DNA of 64,000 nt from Pirellulales bacterium (GTDB lineage Bacteria; Planctomycetota; Planctomycetia; Pirellulales; Thermoguttaceae). The DNA lies in assembly GCA_016929515.1 (NCBI GenBank), contig JAFGIR010000016.1, positions 26,390-90,389 of the forward strand, given 5' to 3'. Positions 33,185 to 45,155 of the stretch are shown piece by piece; positions within the stretch are counted from its first letter, which is position 1; each line of letters opens with the position of its first letter. A model generated the notes under the pieces. That model was not told where the DNA came from and ran no database searches. It saw only the letters and a program-made list of their open reading frames with translations. Both the position numbers and the translations under genes were made by a program.

Positions 33185-34870
33185 TTAATCCTTCTTCTTT
33201 GCCTTGGGGCAACCTTTCTTTGCCGCATCCTTGTGATGAGCCGCGAAGGCTGCCTTCAGTTCTTTCTCGGTCAGTTGGCCGTCGGCGTCCGTGTCGATTT
33301 TGCTAAAACGCTCCTTCATGCTTTCGGGCACTTCATCACGACCGAGCGTACCATTTCCGTCCTTGTCGACTTTCTTGAATCGAGCGGCCATGACAGCCTT
33401 GATCTTCTCGCGGTCGATCTTGCCGGGTTTCTTGCCGGCCTTCTTGCCCTTCATGCCGTGGTGCATGCCAGGACCTTTCATGCCACCCGCTCGGGCAGCG
33501 TGAAATCGCTTGACCATCGAGACCAAGGCCACCTTGGCTTCCTGCTTGCTGATCGCCTTGTCGTCGTCCTTGTCAACCTTTTTGAGGATGCGGACAAAGC
33601 ACTCCTTGTGCGCAACGGCAGCTTCCTTGGCATCAACCTTGCCGTCCTTGTTGGCGTCGATCTTGTCGAAGACCTTGTTGGCGCCCATCATGATCCGCCC
33701 AACAATGGCGACATTCGGACGTTGCGGACTACCCTTGCCGGGACCCTTCATGCCAGATCCGCCCATGCCGGGCCGCTTGGCGGGCTTCATCCACGGGTGT
33801 CCGCCGGGGCTCTTCATGCCGGGACCACGCGTGCCCGGGCCGCCACGCATCGCAAGCGCCTTGGGATAACCCTTGCCGGGACCCATGGCCGGACGACCGG
33901 GACCACGCGTGCCCGGGCCGTGTTTGCCGTGCACGCCGAGACCGCGCATCCCAGGTTGTAGTTTGCCGCCCTCGAGTTGATACATGGCCAAATGATACTG
34001 GGCCAGATGGTACAACGCCTCGCGATTCGGACCACGCATGCCTGGGCCCTTCTTGCCATGGCCACGCTGACCAGGACCACGCATCGCCAACGCCTTGGGG
34101 TGACCCTTGCCAGGCCCCTTCATACCGAAGCCCTCCTTGCCATGGCCACGCTGACCAGGACCACGCATCGCCAACGCCTTGGGGTGACCTTTGCCAGGCC
34201 CCTTCATACCGGGGCCCTTCTTGCCATGGCCACCTTTGCCAGGGCCGAGCATGGCATGATCGGGACCGCCGCAGTGCTTTTTCATTTGAGCGTGCAGTTT
34301 TTGCATGCCCTGCTTGAATTCGTCCAAACTCAGTTGGTTGTTGCCATCCTTGTCGAGCCGCTTGAAAATTTGCTCGGGATTGGGCTTCTTGCCCTTGCCT
34401 TTCATGCCGGGCGCCTCGGAGCCGCGCCGGGCCAATTTCGCCATGCCAGGCTTGCCCTTGTTGGCAGACCACCAGACGTGCGCCGGCGCGGCTTTCGCGT
34501 CGCGGTCACGTCCCGGGTGTCCTTCATGATGCTCACGGTTGCCCACCTTCGGACCGTCGGGTCGGTGCCGACCCGGTGCTCCGAGGCTCTTCCGCGACGC
34601 CTTCAGTTGCGACAGCTTCAGTTCGTCGAGCGAGATTTTCTTGTCGCCGTTCTTGTCGACGCGCTCGAGCAGTCTTCCGAAATGCTCCTTCATCGGGCCG
34701 GGCATTTCGTCGAGAGTGATTTGGCCGTCGTTGTTGGCGTCCAGACGCTTGAAGAAGCCTTCGGGACCAGGCCGCGCCATCGGTGGACGTTTGGCTTCCT
34801 CGGCCATCAAGAGCGACGGCAGCAGCACGATCGCCAGGGCAATCGTCAGAATGGGGAGTGGTCGATACAT
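33185..34870 (-). CDS. secreted multi-EF-hand calcium-binding protein with Gly/Pro/Lys-rich repeat core
   Basis: The signal peptide is MYRPLPILTIALAIVLLPSLLMA. There are seven DxDxDG-type loops: DANNDGQITLDE, DKNGDKKISLDE, DKDGNNQLSLDE, DANKDGKVDAKE, DKDDDKAISKQE, DKDGNGTLGRDE and DTDADGQLTEKE. Confidence 0.85.
   Translation of the reverse strand: MYRPLPILTIALAIVLLPSLLMAEEAKRPPMARPGPEGFFKRLDANNDGQITLDEMPGPMKEHFGRLLERVDKNGDKKISLDELKLSQLKASRKSLGAPGRHRPDGPKVGNREHHEGHPGRDRDAKAAPAHVWWSANKGKPGMAKLARRGSEAPGMKGKGKKPNPEQIFKRLDKDGNNQLSLDEFKQGMQKLHAQMKKHCGGPDHAMLGPGKGGHGKKGPGMKGPGKGHPKALAMRGPGQRGHGKEGFGMKGPGKGHPKALAMRGPGQRGHGKKGPGMRGPNREALYHLAQYHLAMYQLEGGKLQPGMRGLGVHGKHGPGTRGPGRPAMGPGKGYPKALAMRGGPGTRGPGMKSPGGHPWMKPAKRPGMGGSGMKGPGKGSPQRPNVAIVGRIMMGANKVFDKIDANKDGKVDAKEAAVAHKECFVRILKKVDKDDDKAISKQEAKVALVSMVKRFHAARAGGMKGPGMHHGMKGKKAGKKPGKIDREKIKAVMAARFKKVDKDGNGTLGRDEVPESMKERFSKIDTDADGQLTEKELKAAFAAHHKDAAKKGCPKAKKKD
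34052..34245. repeat. 84-bp tandem repeat (2.3 copies) inside the EF-hand gene
   Basis: Units 34052-34135 and 34136-34219 differ at 4 of 84 positions, and a third partial unit follows. Each encodes the 28-aa unit GPGKGHPKALAMRGPGQRGHGK(E/K)G(F/P)GMK. Confidence 0.85.
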
Positions 34871-35730
34871 GTTCCTTTTCTCCTAATGCGGGAACAGAAT
34901 AGGGGGACCAGTCGTGCGCGCTAGCGCGTAGACAGCCAGCGAATCACCTTCATAAACCGCGTGATCGCTCAGGAGTGTCGATTAATTCCAAAGGAATCGT
35001 CAGCTCTAGTCTGTTTGGGGGGATCTATTTAATCTGTAGTAGCAAAGTAAGTAAATTGGGAGACTTGGCGTACATTCTCGTGGCCATTTTCTCGCCGACA
35101 ATAGCCTGGAGCGACGGTTTCGTCCCAGACATAACACAAGACTTTGCCAATGTTGTCCGCCCCCCGGCTAGCCCCTATAATCCACCGATTTTCGCCAACG
35201 AACTCTTCTTACTGAAGATGCGTATAGTAGTCCGGCGGCTGGCTCATCAGGTTTTCCGCCTTGGAGAACAGGCCACCTGATGACACAATAGACCGGTGGC
35301 AGAGGATGTTGCAGCGAAGCCCCATCGTCGTGTTGCCGATTGTCGACAAGGTCGACCAAGAACAACCGACCTGGAGTGATTTTCGAAGACGTGTGTGTGT
35401 TGCAGTGGCCACCTTGAATACGATTGACAACGTTGGCACTCTTGCCCGAGACTGTCACAGACGTTACAAGTCATTAAGAAACCAGTATTTGATACGACTC
35501 GGGCATTAGAGAATTGTTTGGACCGAAATCACGGGGTGGTCGATGATCCGGATGGGCCGAGTTCACTTGCACCCGTCAGGAACTGCCCACGATAGATTTG
35601 CGCGGTGCTCCTTAGCCGCCGGTGAACAATCGCATAGCGAACGAAAAGGTATGATTTCGAGACGTTGAAGGAGGCCGGGCATTCGTTCCGGCGCGTCTTG
35701 CCCACTGCGATCCTTGGGAGAAACAAAGGG

Positions 35731-36009
35731 ATGCATATTCACGGCCCGTCTCATTTGCACGGCCCTCAGCCGGTCGGCGCGCCACACTCATCTCGCGTGG
35801 CGAAGTCCGACACGACGACCTTTTCGGGTCCGATTCAAGACGAACTCCAGATTTCCGATGCGGCTCGACTAATTGAACAAGTCAAGCAGACTCCTGACAT
35901 CCGTCAAGATCGCGTTGACGCCATCCGGCAGCAGATTGCAGCCGGCACTTACGAGACGCCCGAGAAGCTTGACATTGCGTTGGATCGGCTTCTGGACGAG
36001 ATCGGTTAG
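35731..36009 (+). CDS. flgM: anti-sigma-28 factor FlgM
   Basis: 92 aa. The C-terminal segment IRQDRVDAIRQQIAAGTYETPEKLDIALDRLLDEI is the FlgM signature. The start is taken at ATG 35731 (MHIHG). Confidence 0.75.
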   Translation: MHIHGPSHLHGPQPVGAPHSSRVAKSDTTTFSGPIQDELQISDAARLIEQVKQTPDIRQDRVDAIRQQIAAGTYETPEKLDIALDRLLDEIG

Positions 36010-36018
36010 CGCCTTGGC

Positions 36019-36498
36019 ATGTCAAAGGACTACTCACTTCGCACCGTGAAAGTCCCGCTGTCGCCGCGAGAACGGTTTGCCCAGTTTCTGCAGGCCAAGG
36101 GCAAACGAATGACCCGGCAACGACAGCTCATCGTCGATGTTGTCTTCAGCCATCATGATCACTTCGATGCCGACGAACTGATGGCTCATCTCCAGGGGTT
36201 GCTCCGCCGGCGCGAGTTGAGCCGGCCGACCGTCTACCGCACGCTCGGTGAACTGACCGAGGCAGGCCTGATTCGCAAGATGGTGCTCTCTGGCCGCAGT
36301 GTCTACGAACATCAATACGGCTACCCACGGCACGACCATCTGCACTGCGAGGTCTGCAACCGGCTGATCGAATTCCACAGCCCCGAGTTGGAACGGCTCG
36401 TCCGCGAAGCGGCCGTGCAGCACGAATTCCAGGTGAACAGCCACCGGACATTCGTCACGGGTATCTGCGCCGACTGCCAGCGAAGGGAATCGCGGTAG
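36019..36498 (+). CDS. fur: Fur-family metalloregulator
   Basis: The winged-helix block is RMTRQRQLIVDVVFSHHDHFDADEL...SRPTVYRTLGELTEAGLI. The metal sites are HDHLHCEVCNRLIEF and GICADC. Confidence 0.85.
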   Translation: MSKDYSLRTVKVPLSPRERFAQFLQAKGKRMTRQRQLIVDVVFSHHDHFDADELMAHLQGLLRRRELSRPTVYRTLGELTEAGLIRKMVLSGRSVYEHQYGYPRHDHLHCEVCNRLIEFHSPELERLVREAAVQHEFQVNSHRTFVTGICADCQRRESR

Positions 36499-36508
36499 TC
36501 CGATTAGC

Positions 36509-38083
36509 CTACGCCTCTTCGAGCATCTTCCATCCCAGCGCGTCGGCCAGGGTGAAGACGGGCTCCTTCAGGTCGCCGTAGTAGGTCACCCGGTGCCAGC
36601 CCCATTTGTCCCACTGGCGGAGCAACTTCTCCAGGTCGCCGACCGGCTCCACGGCCAGTTTCGTCCGGCACGCCCGATCGTCGTCCACGTTGGCCATCGC
36701 CTTGCCCTGGTGGAAAGCGATCGCCTTTCGGGCAGGGTTGAATTTGACCGTGGTCGTCATGTAACCCAGCGGGCAGAGTGATCGAACCGCCGCCCCCCGG
36801 CGATCCTCGCTGTGCGTGAGGATCTCGAATGGGCTGGTCTCACCCTCCGGCCCGAACACCTTGTTCGACGCAACGCAATGGGCGTAAATGATCTGCCGCG
36901 TCGATGTATCGATGACCGGATCGGAAATGAAGCCGGGCCGTCCTCGTGTCAAGGCCGTCATGGCGATCATCGTGGCGGTCGACAGCAGATCGCACTCGCA
37001 CGCGCCAATGAGCCCCTCGTTATTCAACTCGTGGAAACCCATACACGGATAGGCGTGGATATGTCCTCCATAGAACCCGCCGAGGCAATTGATCGTGATC
37101 GCATTCGCGCCGTGCCGCTTGAGGACTTCCTTTTGGGCTAGGTACATGGCGGCCGACTGTTTAAGTGTTTCTGGTGAGACATTTTCGATTCTTCGAGCCG
37201 TCTTCTGCCACTTTTCGGCTATTTCGATCGACTGATCCCTGTCGGCCGACTGCCAGGCTGCGTTCAATTCGGCGTACGGCACGTCGACCACTTCAATGCC
37301 CATCTCTTTCTTGATGGCACTCCAGAGTCCCCCGTGTCTTCCACCCACCGCGAGGATCTTGCCCCGCTTCATTGCGGCCAAGCAGTCTTTCATATCGAGC
37401 GTCGCGACGGGATCGGGCAGCGAGGAAAGATCTCCGGGTGCGGGCGTTCGTTGCCGGCGCACCCGTTCGGTCGCCTCGACGAATTGTCCCATCGCACCTC
37501 CCCTGGCAACGATTTCAAAACACTGGACGGCCGCCGACAAGTCGTCCGGATCGGACGAGGCGACATAGCCAACGTTGGGTCGCTTCTGCCGAAGCATTTT
37601 GGCCGTGTATAGAAGGAACCCGCCGCTGCCGCCATAGGTGAAGTCGGCAAAAAGCGTCGGTTTACCCGAGGTCACCACCGTCTGCACCACGCGGGGCCAG
37701 TTGTTCATTTGCATGACTAAATAGCCGTCGACCGGCGACGATTTGTCTTGAGCGAGAATCTTCTTGGCCTGCTCAGACCCATCGGCCATCGACGTGACGA
37801 ACTCGAAACCAGGACACGCCGCCTTCAATTGTGTCTCGATGCCGGCCATGACCGGCCTAAAATCGTACCCCACGTGTGGCCAGGTCGGACGTGGTTGGAC
37901 CTTGTCATACAAGCTGTAGATGATTCGGATCCGCGGCTTGTCAGCGGCCACGGCTGCCCGAGCCAGACGATCAGTGGCCAGCAAGCCCGTCACCCCGGCG
38001 CAGGCCGCGCAGCCGGCTGCCAGGAATCGCCGCCGGCTCAGAGGACAACAGGAACACGAAGAAACTAATTCGGAGTGTTTCAT
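36509..38083 (-). CDS. Tat-signal, L-fucose/L-arabinose-isomerase-like (COG2407-like) protein, paralog 1 (524 aa)
   Basis: The N-terminus is MKHSELVSSCSCCPLSRRRFLAAGCAACAGVTGLLATDRLARA|A. The core AYPCMGFHELNNEGLIGACECDLLSTATM...GRPGFISDPVID...WGWHRVTYYGD resembles the metal-site layout of FucI/AraA-like isomerases. The ATG at 38083 follows AGGAAA. Confidence 0.8.
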   Translation of the reverse strand: MKHSELVSSCSCCPLSRRRFLAAGCAACAGVTGLLATDRLARAAVAADKPRIRIIYSLYDKVQPRPTWPHVGYDFRPVMAGIETQLKAACPGFEFVTSMADGSEQAKKILAQDKSSPVDGYLVMQMNNWPRVVQTVVTSGKPTLFADFTYGGSGGFLLYTAKMLRQKRPNVGYVASSDPDDLSAAVQCFEIVARGGAMGQFVEATERVRRQRTPAPGDLSSLPDPVATLDMKDCLAAMKRGKILAVGGRHGGLWSAIKKEMGIEVVDVPYAELNAAWQSADRDQSIEIAEKWQKTARRIENVSPETLKQSAAMYLAQKEVLKRHGANAITINCLGGFYGGHIHAYPCMGFHELNNEGLIGACECDLLSTATMIAMTALTRGRPGFISDPVIDTSTRQIIYAHCVASNKVFGPEGETSPFEILTHSEDRRGAAVRSLCPLGYMTTTVKFNPARKAIAFHQGKAMANVDDDRACRTKLAVEPVGDLEKLLRQWDKWGWHRVTYYGDLKEPVFTLADALGWKMLEEA

Positions 38084-38341: not shown

Positions 38342-39916
38342 CTACGCCTCTTCGAGCACTTTCCAACCCAGTGCGTCGGCCAGAGCGTAGACGGGCTCTT
38401 TCAGATCGCCATAGTAGGTCACTCGGTGCCACCCCCATTGGTCCCACTGGCCAAACAACTTCTCGATATCGCCGACCGGCTCAACCGCCAGTTTCGTGCG
38501 ACACGCCCGATCGTCGTCCACGTTCTCCACCGCCTTGCCTTGGTGAAAGAGAATGGTCTTCCACTCCGGACCGAACTCGACGGTCGTGGTCATATAGCCC
38601 GTCGGAAAGATCGACCGAACCGCAGCGCCCTTGCGGTCTTCGCTGTGGGTGAGGATTTCGAACGGGTTGGACGGGCCCTCCGGTCCGAATACCCTGTTCG
38701 AGGCGACACAATGGGCATAGATGATTTGCCGCTTCGCCGCGTCGATCACCGGATCGGAGATGAAACCGGGACGGCCCCCGGCAAGTGCCGTCATCGCAAC
38801 CATGGTCGAGGCCGACCGTACGTCGCACTCGCACCCGCCGATCATCCCCTGGTTATTCAACTCATGAAACCCCAAGCAAGGATACGCGTGCAGATGACCT
38901 CCGTAGAACCCACCGAGGCAGTGGATCGTGATCCCGGTGGCGTCGTGCCGCTTGAGCAGCTCTTTTTCGGCCAAGTACATCGCGGCCGACGCTTCGAGCG
39001 TCTCGCGCGAGACGTCTTCGATACGCCGGGCCGCCTGCTGCCAGCGGTCGGCGATTTCCTGCGATTGGTCCTTGTCGGCTGCCCGCCAGGCTGCGTCGAG
39101 CTCGGCGAACGAAACCTGGACGACCTGAATACCCATTTGCTCTTCGATCGCCTGCCAGAGCCGTCCTCGCCCACGACCCACGGCCAGAATCTTGCCTCGT
39201 TTCATCGCGGCAAGGCAGTCTTTCGGCTCCAGCGCGCGCGGTGCATCGGGCTTGCACGAGAGATCGCCGGGTGCGGGCGTGCGCTCGCGGCGAGTCTGGG
39301 CGACCGCCGCGGCGAACTGCTCCCTGGAACCGCCTTGCTCGACGACGTGGAAACACTTGACCGCCGCGACCAGATCATCCAAGTCGGAGGACGAGACAAA
39401 ACCGAGTCGCGGCTGCGTCTCGCGCAACGATCGCGCCGTGTTGCTGAGAAATCGGCCCGTACCGCCATACGGGAAATCGGCGTAAAGCGTCGGCTTGCCC
39501 GCGGCAAGCACGGTCCGTACCGCGCGGGTCCGGTTGTTCAATTGATAGACCAGATAGCCGTCGACGGGCAACGCCTTGTCCTGTTCGAGGATTTTCTTGG
39601 CCTGCTCGGCGCCATTGACCGTCGCGGTGACGAACTCGAACTCCGGGCAATCCTCCTTGAGCTTGGCGTCGATTCGGGCGATGACCGGCCGAAAGTCAAA
39701 CCCAACGTTCGGCCAGTCCGGGCGGACCTGCTTCAGATCCTGGAACGCATAGATGACCCGAATCCGAGTCTTCTTCGTCTTCTCGGCCGCTCGGGCAAGG
39801 CTGCCCGCCCTCAGAAGACCGGTCGCCCCGGCACACGCCGCGCAGCTGGCTTCAAGAAACCGACGGCGGTTCACCGAACAACAAGCACACATGGAAGAAG
39901 ACTCGGAGTGTTTCAT
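38342..39916 (-). CDS. Tat-signal isomerase-like protein, paralog 2 (524 aa)
   Basis: The N-terminus is MKHSESSSMCACCSVNRRRFLEASCAACAGATGLLRAGSLARA|A. It has the same core motifs as paralog 1. The ATG at 39916 lies 6 nt after GGAAG; ATG 39919 is an alternative. Confidence 0.8.
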   Translation of the reverse strand: MKHSESSSMCACCSVNRRRFLEASCAACAGATGLLRAGSLARAAEKTKKTRIRVIYAFQDLKQVRPDWPNVGFDFRPVIARIDAKLKEDCPEFEFVTATVNGAEQAKKILEQDKALPVDGYLVYQLNNRTRAVRTVLAAGKPTLYADFPYGGTGRFLSNTARSLRETQPRLGFVSSSDLDDLVAAVKCFHVVEQGGSREQFAAAVAQTRRERTPAPGDLSCKPDAPRALEPKDCLAAMKRGKILAVGRGRGRLWQAIEEQMGIQVVQVSFAELDAAWRAADKDQSQEIADRWQQAARRIEDVSRETLEASAAMYLAEKELLKRHDATGITIHCLGGFYGGHLHAYPCLGFHELNNQGMIGGCECDVRSASTMVAMTALAGGRPGFISDPVIDAAKRQIIYAHCVASNRVFGPEGPSNPFEILTHSEDRKGAAVRSIFPTGYMTTTVEFGPEWKTILFHQGKAVENVDDDRACRTKLAVEPVGDIEKLFGQWDQWGWHRVTYYGDLKEPVYALADALGWKVLEEA

Positions 39917-40076: not shown

Positions 40077-41651
40077 CTACGCCTCCTCCAATACCTTCCA
40101 CCCCAACGCGTCGGCCAGGGCGAAGACAGGCTCTTTCAGGTCACCGTAGTAGGTCACGCGGTGCCAGCCCCACTGGTCCCACTGGCGGAAGAGTTTCTCG
40201 ATGTCACCCACCGGTTCGACCGCCAGCTTCGTGCGACACGCCCGATCGTCGTCGACGTTCTCCACGGCCTTGCCTTGGTGAAAGAGAATGGCCTTCCGCT
40301 CGGAACTGAACTTGACCGTCGTCGTCATGTAGCCCACGGGGAAGATCGAGCGGACTGCGGCACCGTTGCGATCTTCGCTGTGCGTGAGAATCTCGAATGG
40401 GTTTGTTTCGCCTTGTGGTCCGAAGACCCGGTTCGATGCGACGCAATGGGCGTAAATAATTTGCCGCTTGGCGGTGTCAACGACCGGATCGGAGATGAAC
40501 CCCGGCCGACCCCCGGTCATAGCCGTCATGGCCACCATCGTCGCAGTAGCTCGCAAGTCGCACTCGCACGCCCCGATGAGGCCTCGGTTGTTCAATTCGT
40601 GGAAACCCAGGCACGGATAGGCGTGGATATGCCCTCCGTAAAAGCCTCCGAGGCAATTGATCGTGATCGCGTTGGCGCCGTGCTTCTTGAGCACCTCTTT
40701 TTCGGCTAGATACATGGCCGCCGACTGTTCCAGCGTCTCGCGCGAAACATCCTCGATCTTTGCAGCCGTTTTCTGCCAGCGGTCGGCGATTTCTCGCGAC
40801 TGGTCCTTGTCGGCCGCCTCCCAAGCCGCGTTCAACTCGGCAAAGGGCACCTCGACGATTTCGATGCCCATCTGCTCGGTGACGGCCGGACCGATCTTCG
40901 GAAAAAAGCGACCCACCGTCAGAATCTTGCTCTGCTTCATCGCCGTGAGGCAGTCTTTTGTATCGAGCGTCTTGAGCGGGTCGGGTTTGCAGATCAAGTC
41001 ACTCGACGCGGGCGTCCCGTTCTTGCGCACCCGCTCGGTGGCCGCGACAAAGTCCGCAACCGAGCCGCCTTTCTTGATCAGTTCAAAACAACCCACCGCC
41101 GCGACCAGATCGTCCGGGTTCGACGAGGCGACGAAACCCAAGTTCGGCGTGTTGCGACGCAGCAAGCTCGCCGTGTAAACGAGGAATCCGCCGCTGCCAC
41201 CGAATTGAAAGTCGGCGTAGAGCGTCGGCTTGCCGGTGGTAACCACAGGCTGCACCACGTGATTCCAGCAGTTCATCTGATAAACGAGGTAGCCGTCGAT
41301 CTTGGCCGACTTGTCCTGTTCGAGGATCTCCTGGGTCTGCTTCGCGCCGGTGGCCATCGACGTGACGAACTCGATGTTTGGGCATCCCCTCTTCAACACG
41401 GCCTCGATTTGCGCCATGACGGGCCGGAAATCGAACCCAACGTTCGGCCAGTCCGCGCTCAGCTGTGTGGGGCCATGCAGAGCGTAGATGATCCGGATCC
41501 GCGTCTTATCCGTTTTCTCGGCTGCCCGAGCAAGGCCGCTGCCCGCCATAAGCCCCGTCGCGCCGGCACACGCCGCGCAACCGGCAGCAAGAAATCGACG
41601 CCGGCTGACCGGACAACAGGCGCACGCGGAAAGGCTCTCAAGGCGATTCAT
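40077..41651 (-). CDS. Tat-signal isomerase-like protein, paralog 3 (524 aa)
   Basis: The N-terminus is MNRLESLSACACCPVSRRRFLAAGCAACAGATGLMAGSGLARA|A. The C-terminus is nearly identical to paralog 2. Confidence 0.8.
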   Translation of the reverse strand: MNRLESLSACACCPVSRRRFLAAGCAACAGATGLMAGSGLARAAEKTDKTRIRIIYALHGPTQLSADWPNVGFDFRPVMAQIEAVLKRGCPNIEFVTSMATGAKQTQEILEQDKSAKIDGYLVYQMNCWNHVVQPVVTTGKPTLYADFQFGGSGGFLVYTASLLRRNTPNLGFVASSNPDDLVAAVGCFELIKKGGSVADFVAATERVRKNGTPASSDLICKPDPLKTLDTKDCLTAMKQSKILTVGRFFPKIGPAVTEQMGIEIVEVPFAELNAAWEAADKDQSREIADRWQKTAAKIEDVSRETLEQSAAMYLAEKEVLKKHGANAITINCLGGFYGGHIHAYPCLGFHELNNRGLIGACECDLRATATMVAMTAMTGGRPGFISDPVVDTAKRQIIYAHCVASNRVFGPQGETNPFEILTHSEDRNGAAVRSIFPVGYMTTTVKFSSERKAILFHQGKAVENVDDDRACRTKLAVEPVGDIEKLFRQWDQWGWHRVTYYGDLKEPVFALADALGWKVLEEA

Positions 41652-41920
41652 GATCGTTCTCCTCTAATCGCGGCGGGAAGGAGGAGGCAGAAGCGCGACA
41701 AGTAGGTGGGAAACTCGTGCCGCGCAGGAAACGAGAGTCTGCCACCTCCAGTTTCATCCTGTCATTCTACAGGTCTTTCCTGTTCGTTTCAAACGTTTCT
41801 CCATCTCCCGCGCGCACGGCACTCAAGGCCAACAGTGGCAAGCCTTTGTGGAAAGTCTCGGGGGCCAAAACGCCTTTTGCGGTGAATCAAAACCGGCGGC
41901 CACTCGGCTTTCTGACGCGG

Positions 41921-42862
41921 TCAGTCAACAACGGTCTTCTCGTCCGAGTCAAGAGCAAACGTCTCGACCGATGAAAACCGCCGGCGGATGGTTCGTTGAA
42001 ACTCGACGCTTGGGTAGCCGAGAATCAGGGCCATGGCCGGCGTGTTTCCCTCGGGCACCCCCAGCTTCCGGCACAGTGCCTTGTTGCGCTGGATGATCGG
42101 CGCGGCGCCGCCGATCATCGTCGTGCCCAGCCCGAGCGACTCGGCCGCCAGCATCGCGTAGGTGCATGCGATCATCGCATCGGGCACGTCGGTATAGGGC
42201 GAGTGGTGGAAAACAATCACGGCCGGCGCGTCGTAGAAGACCGCGTCGCGGCCCGCGCGGTGGTGCTGGACGTAAGTTTCAGCCAATGGGCGAATGAAAT
42301 CGCGAAACTGCTCGTATTTGGCCCGGCTCATCATCGGACGCATCAACGTCAGAACCCAGGGCCTGAAGAACTTCAGGAATCCCTCGTATCCTTCGATGAT
42401 CTGGTCGGCAAGCTCCCGCACGGCCTTCCGCCCGCGGACTACCACGCAGCCGACGTCCCACGGCGGAATGCCCATTGGGGCCGACGAGGCCATTTCGACT
42501 ACTCGATCGAGAAGCTCCTGGTCGACCGCCTGGTCGGTGAAATGGCGAACGCTGCGGCGACCGCGCATCAGCGCGGCAAGCGCGTCGGCCGTGGCCTTCT
42601 CGCCTGATTGCGGCGCCGGCAGCAGATCGTCCGGCGAGATGCCGCGACCGCTTACTCGAATCGCTCCCTCGGGGCAGACCATCATGCAGTGGCCGCAGGC
42701 GATGCAACCGAAAGGGCTGTCGGCGTGGACCACGATCCGCCCGTCGTCCAGGCTCAACACCTCGCCCGCGCAGACCTCGGCACACTGCCCACACTGGATG
42801 CAAGCGGCTTCGTCTACCCGAACGGTGCCCGCCTCGCGATAAAGACTATGCATGATGGCCAT
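41921..42862 (-). CDS. 2x[4Fe-4S] ferredoxin domain fused to nitroreductase-family domain
   Basis: It has CIQCGQCAEVC and CIACGHCMMVCP, followed by RRSVRHFTDQAVDQELLDRVVEMASSAPMG and the nitroreductase fold. Confidence 0.85.
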   Translation of the reverse strand: MAIMHSLYREAGTVRVDEAACIQCGQCAEVCAGEVLSLDDGRIVVHADSPFGCIACGHCMMVCPEGAIRVSGRGISPDDLLPAPQSGEKATADALAALMRGRRSVRHFTDQAVDQELLDRVVEMASSAPMGIPPWDVGCVVVRGRKAVRELADQIIEGYEGFLKFFRPWVLTLMRPMMSRAKYEQFRDFIRPLAETYVQHHRAGRDAVFYDAPAVIVFHHSPYTDVPDAMIACTYAMLAAESLGLGTTMIGGAAPIIQRNKALCRKLGVPEGNTPAMALILGYPSVEFQRTIRRRFSSVETFALDSDEKTVVD

Positions 42863-43237: not shown

Positions 43238-43250
43238 AAACACGTCGCCG

Positions 43251-43460
43251 GCAGGGTGGCTGGGGCATAGCGGAGCGGTGCCCCGGAAGTCCGAGAACTG
43301 GGCCATGGCCCAGCGGCGGCCCAGGGCTCCTGCCGCCCGGCGACCGTGGTCCGGCCCTTCGACCTGATCATGCATGAGACGTCCCTCGTGGATCATGGTA
43401 GTCTGTATACCATGGGCACACAGGTTTTTTCAAGTCAACTTTTTGGCCACCCCTCTTTGT
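43251..43460 (+). repeat. dispersed repeat unit A, copy 1
   Basis: It starts with gcagggtggctggggcatagcggagcggtgcccc and ends around tttttggccacccc. It aligns with 44983-45155 (about 70% by eye, with a ~40-nt indel). Confidence 0.6.
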
Positions 43461-43601
43461 TGCCGCGTGCCCGACGACGAACGGGAACCACGGATGGACA
43501 CGAATCGACACAAGATGGAGGGAAAAACTGGAGAGGACGTACGCCGGGCCGGTGGTCGAGCGACGAAGATTGGCCACGAAAAACACGAAGACGGTAGGTG
43601 G

Positions 43602-43739
43602 CCTTGATGGATTGGCCGGACAGATCTCGGTGTGCGACTGCTTGCGGAGTTTCTCGTGGCGTTGAATCGGTGCGACGGCACTGCTTGCCGGAGACCATTA
43701 ACCAGGAGATAATCGGCAAGCAGTGCGGCCCCGTCTCGG
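43602..43739 (+). repeat. dispersed repeat unit B, copy 1 (contains 13-bp-stem hairpin)
   Basis: About 85-90% identical by eye to 44845-44983. The internal hairpin is GCACTGCTTGCCG-(23 nt)-CGGCAAGCAGTGC. Confidence 0.7.
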
Positions 43740-43925: not shown

Positions 43926-44828
43926 GTGGCAACGATGGATCAATCTCACAAGTACTGTAAGAAGTGTCAAGAACAGTCTCTCCATGCACGACCGGGAACT
44001 AATCATCTTCTCCATGCTTTCTTGACCTTTTTTCTCTGCGGATTCTGGTTGCCGGTTTGGATTCTGGCTTCCATCCGAATTGGTGGCTGGCGTTGTCAGA
44101 CTTGTGGCTATGGAGGTAGCACACTTCTGCGGTTTGGTCCACCGGTACTTGCTCTTGGTGGCTTCCTTCTTGTTCTATCGATCGTTGTGGCAAGCCTTGA
44201 TATGTCAAGCCCCGTGGCTGCAACTACGCCCGGCCGCGATTCTTCCAGCGACACCGCGGCACCCGATGTGGCTACCGCCAAGCCGGTATACGACGTTCCT
44301 TCCCTCATCGGCAAGACCATTGACGAAATCCGAAGCACACTTGGCAAACCTCTGGACTCGGAAATTGAGCCGTCGGAACTACAACTGGATACCGGCGTTG
44401 ACCAATGGGAAAATGTCTTTGAGAAAAACGGTTGTCAGTTGCTGGTAACCTTTGACCCACGGACTCGGAAAGTGGTGGATTTCTTCCTCGAAGGGAACAA
44501 ACAAGAATCCGTGTTGCGGATTGGGCAGTTGTCAGCCGATGCGACGGACTATCGGATTGAGTATGTCAAGGCGATTCGTGATCCTTCGGCTATCACTGGA
44601 GTCAAGGCTATTCCAACACCCAAGGTAGTGGTCCGAGAGCCGGCACCCAAGGTGCCAACAGTGAGAACGTGGACCGATGCTACCGGCCGTTACAAGACGG
44701 AAGGCACGTTTGCTGGGGTTGAATCCGGAAAGGTCAAGTTGATAAAGGCGGACGGAACGTCTATCAACTTGCCGCTTGAGAAACTGTCGCAAGAAGACAG
44801 GCAATGGATAAAGAACCAAGGTAACTAG
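43926..44828 (+). CDS. membrane protein with N-terminal Zn-ribbon/TM region and C-terminal SHD1 (SLA1-homology) domain
   Basis: It has YCKKCQEQ...CQTCG flanking TM segments. The C-terminal RTWTDATGRYKTEGTFAGVESGKVKLIKADGTSINLPLEKLSQEDRQWI is the bacterial SHD1 signature. The start is GTG 43926 or ATG 43935. It is visibly AT-richer than neighbouring genes. Confidence 0.8.
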   Translation: MATMDQSHKYCKKCQEQSLHARPGTNHLLHAFLTFFLCGFWLPVWILASIRIGGWRCQTCGYGGSTLLRFGPPVLALGGFLLVLSIVVASLDMSSPVAATTPGRDSSSDTAAPDVATAKPVYDVPSLIGKTIDEIRSTLGKPLDSEIEPSELQLDTGVDQWENVFEKNGCQLLVTFDPRTRKVVDFFLEGNKQESVLRIGQLSADATDYRIEYVKAIRDPSAITGVKAIPTPKVVVREPAPKVPTVRTWTDATGRYKTEGTFAGVESGKVKLIKADGTSINLPLEKLSQEDRQWIKNQGN

Positions 44829-44844
44829 CTGGGCGCGCGGGTGC

Positions 44845-44983
44845 CCTTGATTGATTGGCCGTACAAATCTCGGTGTGCCACCGCTTGCGGAAGCTCCTCG
44901 TGGTGTTGAATCAGAGCGACGGCACAGCTTGCCGGAGACCATTGGCCAGGAGATAATCTGCAAGCAGTGCGGCCCAGTCTCGG
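44845..44983 (+). repeat. dispersed repeat unit B, copy 2
   Basis: See 43602-43739. It is in the same orientation and lies immediately 3' of the SHD1 gene. Confidence 0.7.
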
Positions 44984-45155
44984 CAGGGTGGCTGGGGCAT
45001 AGCGTAGCGGTGCCCCAGAGCGTCACCGCCCGGCAACCGTGGTTCGACGTTTCGACCTGACCAACCATGGGAAATCCCTCGCCGATCCTAGGTCCATGCA
45101 TACCACAGCCCAATCGGATTTTCCAGTCGAGTTTTTGGCCACCCCCCTTCTTTCA
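44983..45155 (+). repeat. dispersed repeat unit A, copy 2
   Basis: It runs from gcagggtggctggggcatagcgtagcggtgcccc to gtttttggccacccccc, contiguous with B copy 2. Confidence 0.6.

Follow-up and report, generated by a model that had tools for sequence, protein, structure and literature searches.

Conserved CxxC pairs around the twin-arginine motif of a family of AraA/FucI-fold precursors: a possible disposable metal-binding tail

A 64,000-nucleotide stretch of DNA from a Pirellulales bacterium (Planctomycetota; GenBank assembly GCA_016929515.1, contig JAFGIR010000016.1, positions 26,390 to 90,389 of the forward strand), referred to here as the window, carries three tandem minus-strand genes whose 524-amino-acid products begin with twin-arginine translocation (Tat) type signal peptides. 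The conserved unit in these signals is a set of two CxxC pairs with an 11-residue spacer containing S-R-R-x-F-L. In the literature searched we found no description of such a Tat signal peptide, with its embedded and probably metal-binding cysteine motif. The reading we lean toward, while giving it slightly less than an even chance, is that the cysteines are a built-in, disposable metal-capture tail, which would serve metallation of the enzyme in the cytoplasm before its export by Tat. The usual view of Tat signal peptides is that they merely address a protein for export, with very little constraint on their sequence outside the twin arginines. A signal carrying its own conserved metal-binding site would, if true, be a new link of cofactor loading to folded-protein export, and would bear on how cells avoid exporting apo-enzymes without a dedicated chaperone.

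By open reading frame (ORF) list and alignment, the three paralogs are 71-72% identical to one another. Paralog 3 (40077-41651) consists of a Tat-type signal of 43 or 44 residues and an AraA/FucI-fold domain; paralog 2 (38342-39916) and paralog 1 (36509-38083) align with it at 71 and 72% identity, respectively. Their N-termini read MNRLESLSACACCPVSRRRFLAAGCAACAGATG (paralog 3), MKHSESSSMCACCSVNRRRFLEASCAACAGATG (paralog 2), and MKHSELVSSCSCCPLSRRRFLAAGCAACAGVTG (paralog 1), with the common layout M..(8)..C-x-C-C..S-RR-R-F-L-x-x-x-C-A-A-C, then a weakly hydrophobic stretch, then A-R-A/A, where the slash marks the predicted cut; the twin-arginine context is S/N-R-R-R-F-L. In paralog 3 the signal-peptide coding region (41520-41651, minus strand; MNRLESLSACACCPVSRRRFLAAGCAACAGATGLMAGSGLARAA) includes, on the same strand, the n-region motif C10-A-C12-C13 (41613-41624), with C10 and C13 as the conserved pair; the twin arginine R17-R18 inside S-R-R-R-F-L (41598-41603); the early h-region motif C25-A-A-C28 (41568-41579); and a predicted signal peptidase I site, A41-R-A43, with cleavage before A44 (41523-41531). 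The corresponding minus-strand features in paralog 2 (signal peptide 39785-39916) are CACC at 39878-39889, RR at 39863-39868, CAAC at 39833-39844, and ARA at 39788-39796; those in paralog 1 (signal peptide 37952-38083) are CSCC at 38045-38056, RR at 38030-38035, CAAC at 38000-38011, and ARA at 37955-37963. An earlier note on this DNA had placed five conserved cysteines in ranges 41517-41651, 39782-39916, and 37949-38083. These are the first 45 codons of the three genes, and the N-termini are exactly as it quoted them, but the genes are on the minus strand; a plus-strand reading of the same ranges translates to nonsense.

The cysteine-bearing segment of the paralogs is translated. Each ATG has GAGGAG or AAAGGA 6-9 nt to its 5' side (in paralog 3, a Shine-Dalgarno-like GAGGAG at 41659-41664, minus strand), and the paralogs can be aligned in frame downstream of this site and not upstream of it. 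Among 60 non-identical related loci with canonical spacing, the set used for all codon and start counts, 55 have an ATG exactly 16 codons before the twin arginines. The possibility that the true start codons lie downstream of the cysteines, which the earlier note had allowed for, is therefore not borne out: the conserved ATG at -16, the Shine-Dalgarno-like sites, and the paralog similarity ending upstream of the ATG together exclude a mis-called start. Some homolog gene calls (P0046, P0062, and others) do begin at a Met just before SRR, but these look mis-called.

More than 4528 homologs were found in a search of 5.8 billion proteins. The best 120, at 67-79% identity, are nearly all named “hypothetical protein” and come from metagenome-assembled genomes (MAGs) labelled Planctomycetota (Pirellulales, Thermoguttaceae, Phycisphaerae, Sedimentisphaerales), Hydrogenedentota, and Chloroflexi. 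When one genome per GTDB species was scanned, at least 589 species proved to have relatives, and Verrucomicrobiota/Kiritimatiellae, Aminicenantes/Acidobacteria, Omnitrophota, Nitrospirales, and Anaerolineales were added to these groups. Residue conservation was counted in 110 full-length close homologs (67-79% identity), which are not phylogenetically independent. Four of the cysteines are nearly always retained: C10 in 108, C13 in 106, C25 in 107, and C28 in 106. The middle cysteine of CxCC, C12, is retained in only 82, with Gly instead in 17. The twin arginines are present in all 110, F20 in 107, L21 in 108, and A43 of the A-x-A site in 104, with A, L, or V at position 41; Gly24, Gly30, and Gly33 of the h-region are also conserved. 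Averaged over pairs, identity is 79% in residues 17-34 and 72% in the mature enzyme, against 47% in residues 1-16 and 35% in the c-region, so that the segment comprising the twin arginines and the early h-region is more conserved than the enzyme itself.

Homologs outside the source genome thus keep the cysteines (C10, C13, C25, and C28 at 96-98%), which was the first check suggested for the pattern of five conserved cysteines. The pattern is real in the three paralogs, but its unit proves to be C10/C13 plus C25/C28 rather than five equal cysteines. The pattern is well beyond chance, and selection acts on the amino acids. In the 60 loci the Cys codon at -7 is TGT in 38 and TGC in 22, that at -4 is TGC in 32 and TGT in 28, and all four codons are in use for the Gly at -8; this synonymous variation excludes a conserved RNA or DNA element in place of coding sequence.

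The signals have the defining features of the Tat class. Consecutive arginines stand in an S/T-R-R-x-F-L-K-like motif at the boundary of the n- and h-regions (criterion of PMC7317946), followed by an uncharged, Ala/Gly-rich h-region, FLAAGCAACAGATGLMA, and then by A41-R-A43. Profile scores are borderline: with TIGR01409 (cutoff 16.7 bits) paralogs 1, 2, and 3 score 16.6, 19.2, and 13.7 bits, so that only paralog 2 is above cutoff, and with PF10518 all three score 13.3-16.2 bits against a cutoff of 22.7. From the sequences we infer Tat export of the paralogs and the position of their cleavage site. In about 1.2 Mb of flanking DNA, scanned for ORFs in which an uncharged stretch follows RR-x-F-L, none of some 22 Tat-like ORFs outside the family has a CxxC near the twin arginines, and only two carry even a single cysteine upstream. 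The sole exception, on the minus strand of locus L018, is a very distant member of the same superfamily. The motif therefore follows the enzyme rather than the organism or Tat signals at large, and a general property of the Tat signals of these organisms is excluded. Heme attachment (CxxCH) is excluded too, as neither pair is followed by His. No conserved native Cys/His motif in Tat signals was found in the literature searched, of which coverage was incomplete, or in a recent Tat review (PMC7317946).

Likenesses to known systems are partial. With the Tat signals of cofactor enzymes (E. coli TorA, SufI, HyaA, and HybO; consensus S-R-R-x-F-L-K) the paralogs share the tripartite layout, S-R-R-x-F-L, a weakly hydrophobic Ala/Gly-rich h-region, A-x-A, and a folded metalloenzyme-like cargo. 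Unlike those, they have two conserved CxxC pairs flanking the twin arginines, an n-region and early h-region as conserved as the cargo or more so, and no associated chaperone gene. Two of the E. coli signals, those of the [NiFe]-hydrogenase small subunits HyaA (RRSFLKYC; L090 640-819) and HybO (RRDFMKLC; L091 3083-3262), do have a cysteine seven residues from the twin arginines (RR+7). This is the position of the cysteine in RRxFLKxC of a third clade described below and in RRxFLAGC of some short-variant members of the paralogs' own subfamily, although it is a resemblance only. With the knuckle pairs of zinc ribbons and rubredoxins the paralogs share CxxC-x11-CxxC and a Gly or Pro after the first knuckle (G in 21 and P in 20 of 60 loci). 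Here, however, the loop between the knuckles is the Tat motif, the segment has no predicted structure, and the second knuckle, which about a third of species lack, is part of a hydrophobic segment.

Within an extended subfamily 1, defined as 36-100% identity and covering 76 species, 40 species have both CxxC pairs, as do all three paralogs (CxxC-x11-CxxC). In 34 the motif is incomplete, 23 having the n-region pair only and 11 the h-region pair only, and two species have neither. Some clades have Ala, Gly, or Ser in place of the h-region cysteines. In members from Aminicenantes and Acidobacteria the h-region pair is gone and the h-region ends in a lipobox-like LFQAC or FTAC, but GC(P/A)GCP still precedes the twin arginines. 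These endings, together with the lipobox-like AAGC of the paralogs and LAGC of some homologs, might suggest that C25 is a lipobox cysteine (LAAG/C), that it is thioether-modified, or that the segment stays as a membrane anchor, possibilities raised in the earlier note. We consider this very improbable. C25 is only three residues after RRRFL, where 12 or more residues of h-region would be expected (PMC7317946), and AAG-C25 is not a [LVI][ASTVI][GAS]-C that closes a full h-region; the real h-region and the conserved A-x-A come after it, the latter arguing against a retained anchor as well. Moreover, the clades that have a real C-terminal lipobox are those that lost the early h-region CxxC and kept the n-region one.

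The cargo was modelled with AlphaFold2 on a 43-sequence alignment. The model has a predicted local distance difference test (pLDDT) score of 91 overall; residues 50-524 exceed 90, and residues 1-17 and 24-46 fall below 50. Foldseek aligned it over its full length with L-arabinose isomerase (AraA; 4r1p, chain 4r1p_F, E 2.2e-19; 2ajt, E ~2e-19) and L-fucose isomerase (FucI; 1fui, chain 1fui_A, E 6.9e-14), and on this model the mature domain is established as having the three-domain L-arabinose/L-fucose isomerase fold. At the sequence level the relationship is remote. Pfam AraA_central matches at 16.6-16.9 bits, below its cutoff of 24; the nearest sequence model, the NCBIfam model for the sulfoquinovose isomerase SftI, gives 39-44 bits (E 1e-11 at 44 bits) against a cutoff of 700; the AraA model PRK02929 gives 16 bits against 622; and a sequence-profile search of the PDB returned no match. 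The family thus has no Pfam or NCBIfam model above cutoff, although 1680 relatives were found in an exhaustive search of 1.84 billion cluster representatives.

Nine residues (numbered for the protein encoded at 40077-41651) are essentially invariant across full-length representatives, including cytoplasmic members at about 30% identity: C333, C347, C362, E363, D365, H402, C403, C472, and H497. Alignment to E. coli AraA by hhalign places E363 on E306, S387/D388 on E333, and H402 on H350, at a probability of only 42% and with H497 outside the aligned range. E306, E333, H350, and H450 of that enzyme are its Mn ligands. AraA, FucI, and SftI are cytoplasmic enzymes. The paralogs share the full-length three-domain fold of AraA and FucI, with E363 and H402 tentatively aligned to two of the ligands, but differ from all three in being apparently exported, and from AraA and FucI in having only 12-14% identity to them and five invariant cysteines around the presumed metal site. 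The cargo is thus an unannotated branch of the AraA/FucI superfamily, and its cysteines suggest a Cys-ligated metal or Fe-S site in this fold. Such a site would fit loading of metal or cofactor in the cytoplasm, and hence export by Tat. The family flagged by the motif is very large, with thousands of sequences from phyla common in sediments and anoxic habitats; its sugar-isomerase fold, apparently periplasmic location, and unusual invariant cysteines hint at a carbohydrate chemistry that would be new.

Two more distant groups have a different N-terminal chemistry on the same theme. Subfamily 2, found via the protein encoded on the minus strand of L018 (3358-4920), comprises at least 4570 proteins (including P0271-P0390); it has 20-24% identity to subfamily 1 in the mature domain, and about 25% over some 300 C-terminal residues by tblastn. 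Its Tat n-region spans some 31 residues, with an average of 3.8 His and 3.5 Cys. A CCP sequence is invariant (118 of 118), usually as HCCPC followed by G, C, or S. This cluster lies 13-21 residues upstream of the twin arginines, and there are no cysteines after them or in the h-region. In L018 the subfamily 2 gene is convergent to a subfamily 1 gene, an adjacency seen only in that locus.

Clade 3, around P0135 (proteins P0391-P0450; loci L087 139-1626 and L088 120-1601), mixes exported, Tat-lipoprotein-like forms with non-exported ones. The precursors read M..(P/S)CxxCxxG(V/I)(T/S)RRxFLKxCG...FT(A/S)C. Their siblings lack the twin arginines and h-region, and have a Cys/His tail fused to the first beta-strand: MIRNTNACTSCMDHTH... 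in P0392 (more fully, MIRNTNACTSCMDHTHQSEKRKVRVGL); MNQNGNACMSCMGH... in P0393, a cluster of 11 member sequences (more fully, MNQNGNACMSCMGHTPGTDRRQVRVGL); MGQHQEKGCHAHSHTHQH... in P0405 (more fully, MGQHQEKGCHAHSHTHQHTSVRVGL); ...KCCHSHRH... in P0430 (more fully, MSSEWKKCCHSHRHADQH); and ...HHCGGCGHAGSHGH... in P0135 (more fully, MIPSIHHCGGCGHAGSHGHVD). Some clade 3 entries apparently without a signal are truncated gene calls, and only checked starts or multi-member clusters were used. The starts of P0392 and P0405 are genuine: upstream of the first are AGGAGG at a distance of 7 nt and in-frame stops at 17 codons, and upstream of the second is an in-frame stop at three codons. In L088 a LacI-family regulator is directly downstream of the clade 3 gene.

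Three deeply diverged clades thus all have a Cys or Cys/His cluster at the very N-terminus, each with a sequence of its own. This recurrence, and the persistence of the cluster where there is no export signal, tie its function to the enzyme in the cytoplasm rather than to the Tat machinery. Metal-binding segments of other proteins include the N-terminal CxxCGC of HypB, the C-terminal tails of SlyD and HspA, and the HCxxPCG hook of NiSOD. Like these segments of Ni/Zn metallochaperones and enzymes, those here are short, disordered, terminal, and dense in Cys and His, reading H-rich...HCCPCG(C/H) in subfamily 2 and ACTSCMDHTH or GCHAHSHTHQH in the non-exported relatives. Unlike them, the tail here is borne by the client enzyme, within an export signal that can be cleaved off, and not by a separate chaperone, and its spacing differs from that of the HypB and NiSOD motifs. 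Both the SlyD tail and the binding of Tat signals by SlyD have been described (PMC3292732, PMC11198818). Dense Cys and His, CxxC knuckles with Gly or Pro after them, and runs of His are what metal-binding tails are composed of, and do not resemble a protein-recognition epitope.

The mechanism we tentatively favor would run as follows. Each gene would encode the precursor of a periplasmic metalloenzyme of the AraA/FucI fold, exported folded by Tat. The tail, located at the end of the signal that faces the cytoplasm, would be the n-region CxxC plus, in this subfamily, the second CxxC, with which the h-region opens. While the protein folds in the cytoplasm, the tail would capture a thiophilic metal (Fe, Ni, Co, or Zn) or a small Fe-S unit, and keep it beside the Cys/His/Glu/Asp-rich active site, which would be loaded before export. 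During transport the cysteine part of the signal would stay on the cytoplasmic side, and cutting by signal peptidase at A-R-A/A would then leave a mature enzyme without the tail. In the model of Tat transport, neither the twin arginines nor the residues before them leave the cytoplasmic face (PMC7317946); the location of the arginines would keep all four cysteines in the reducing, metal-buffered compartment where the enzyme acquires its metal. Metal binding by the tail and hand-off to the active site are both steps that we infer from sequence. The transient binding of a metal or Fe-S center proposed in the earlier note finds comparative support in the Cys/His-rich n-region of subfamily 2 and the tails of non-exported relatives; the export proofreading it attached to this is at most secondary, since it is the enzyme, and not export, that the motif accompanies.

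Several observations weigh against this mechanism. The two CxxC pairs have been lost independently within subfamily 1, so that a fixed four-cysteine site is not universal. A further Tat-bearing group has no cysteines in its signal, and many cytoplasmic members have no tail; as both keep the same invariant active-site residues, the tail is not obligatory for loading the site. The 79% conservation in the h-region is not explained by a metal tail alone. Finally, AlphaFold2 leaves residues 1-46 in subfamily 1 and 1-45 in subfamily 2 disordered and undocked, although this is uninformative for a metal-mediated contact.

The cysteines might instead have no metal role. They could be small, weakly hydrophobic residues kept for Tat reasons (low h-region hydrophobicity, packing against TatB/TatC, or helix-helix contacts through GCxxCxGxxG) or could form a thiol redox switch, the tails of the relatives then being unrelated. 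That the h-region is conserved as a whole, its three glycines included, and that some clades have Ala, Gly, or Ser at its cysteine positions would both be accommodated. We nevertheless regard this as improbable: it leaves unexplained the n-region pair, which lies outside the part that inserts into the membrane and is conserved at more than 96%, the invariant CCP and His runs of subfamily 2, and the tails on non-exported members, and the same genomes have other Tat signals that do without cysteines.

The conservation of residues 17-34 and the bracketing of the twin arginines by the CxxC pairs leave room for a second role, and the signal may also act as an export checkpoint. In its full form, the two pairs would clamp a metal or ligate the empty active site, hiding the RR-x-F-L loop from TatBC; completion of the cofactor would free the signal and permit export, the signal peptide being in effect its own redox enzyme maturation protein (REMP). 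The fixed 11-residue spacer, a signal core more conserved than the enzyme, a cargo with a Cys-rich, probably cofactor-bearing site, and the lack of any conserved REMP-like gene nearby are all in keeping with this, and it is compatible with a metal tail as an added role. As the primary explanation it is unlikely. The non-exported relatives keep their Cys/His tails, which argues that export control is not the primary role; the cysteines of subfamily 2 form a single cluster well before the twin arginines; 23 of the 76 subfamily 1 species are without the second pair; and AlphaFold2 shows no docking of the signal onto the mature domain. A combination of the two ideas strikes us as distinctly unlikely. 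Here the signal would be a single-use metallochaperone as well as a checkpoint: metal on the CxxC pairs would lock the twin-arginine loop, and its transfer into the five-cysteine active site would unlock the loop for TatBC, so that only holo-enzyme would be exported, with no separate chaperone. The enzyme would then be a new class of Cys-ligated periplasmic metallo-isomerase found in Planctomycetota, Verrucomicrobiota, Acidobacteriota, and others.

Tat signals that depend on a chaperone typically have conserved n-regions, as in the pairs TorA/TorD, DmsA/DmsD, NapA/NapD, and HyaA/HyaE. The n-region here could accordingly be a handle that docks a trans-encoded chaperone (REMP-like, SlyD-like, or an Fe-S or Ni carrier), with the cysteines serving for recognition or as a metal bridge; the RR+7 cysteine that HyaA and HybO share with clade 3 and the short subfamily 1 variants is a further point in its favor. 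This explanation too appears improbable. The motifs of the three clades differ (CxxC; HCCPC plus His; PCxxC), which is more easily accounted for by metal chemistry than by a single partner, and the 132 genes that flank it in 80 loci show no enrichment of any chaperone-like family. When these ORFs were surveyed with Pfam, the top families each accounted for 5 of 132, were unrelated, and included none that is chaperone-like; the contexts of L001 through L005 are unrelated. A conserved operon partner or adjacent chaperone can thus be set aside for these 80 loci. The REMP-type chaperone gene that the earlier note proposed looking for is not encoded beside the gene in any of them, although these are neighborhoods only and a partner might be encoded in trans.

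Tandem duplication of the family gene is also found in other Planctomycetaceae MAGs, with two copies in L006 (P0002 and P0003) and two in L016, one of them apparently frameshifted. In the window, a fusion of a 2x[4Fe-4S] ferredoxin and a nitroreductase (41921-42862, minus strand) is directly upstream of paralog 3 on the same strand, but is not next to homologs elsewhere. On the other side of the tandem array are an FlgM-like anti-sigma-28 gene (35665-36009, plus strand) and a Fur-family regulator (36019-36498, plus strand), the latter convergent with paralog 1 and ending 11 nt from its stop codon; the Fur-family gene is likewise not conserved next to homologs. In L001, feoAB is two genes from the homolog, and other loci show no general link to metal regulation. 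Farther from the paralogs, the window has intergenic direct repeats of about 145 nt, 88-89% identical (43597-43739 and 44840-44983), and shorter repeats (43249-43287 and 44981-45019; 43427-43457 and 45119-45149), which together flank an SHD1-domain gene (43926-44828). A 561-amino-acid protein encoded at 33185-34870 (minus strand) has multiple EF-hand calcium-binding domains, which is unusual in bacteria.

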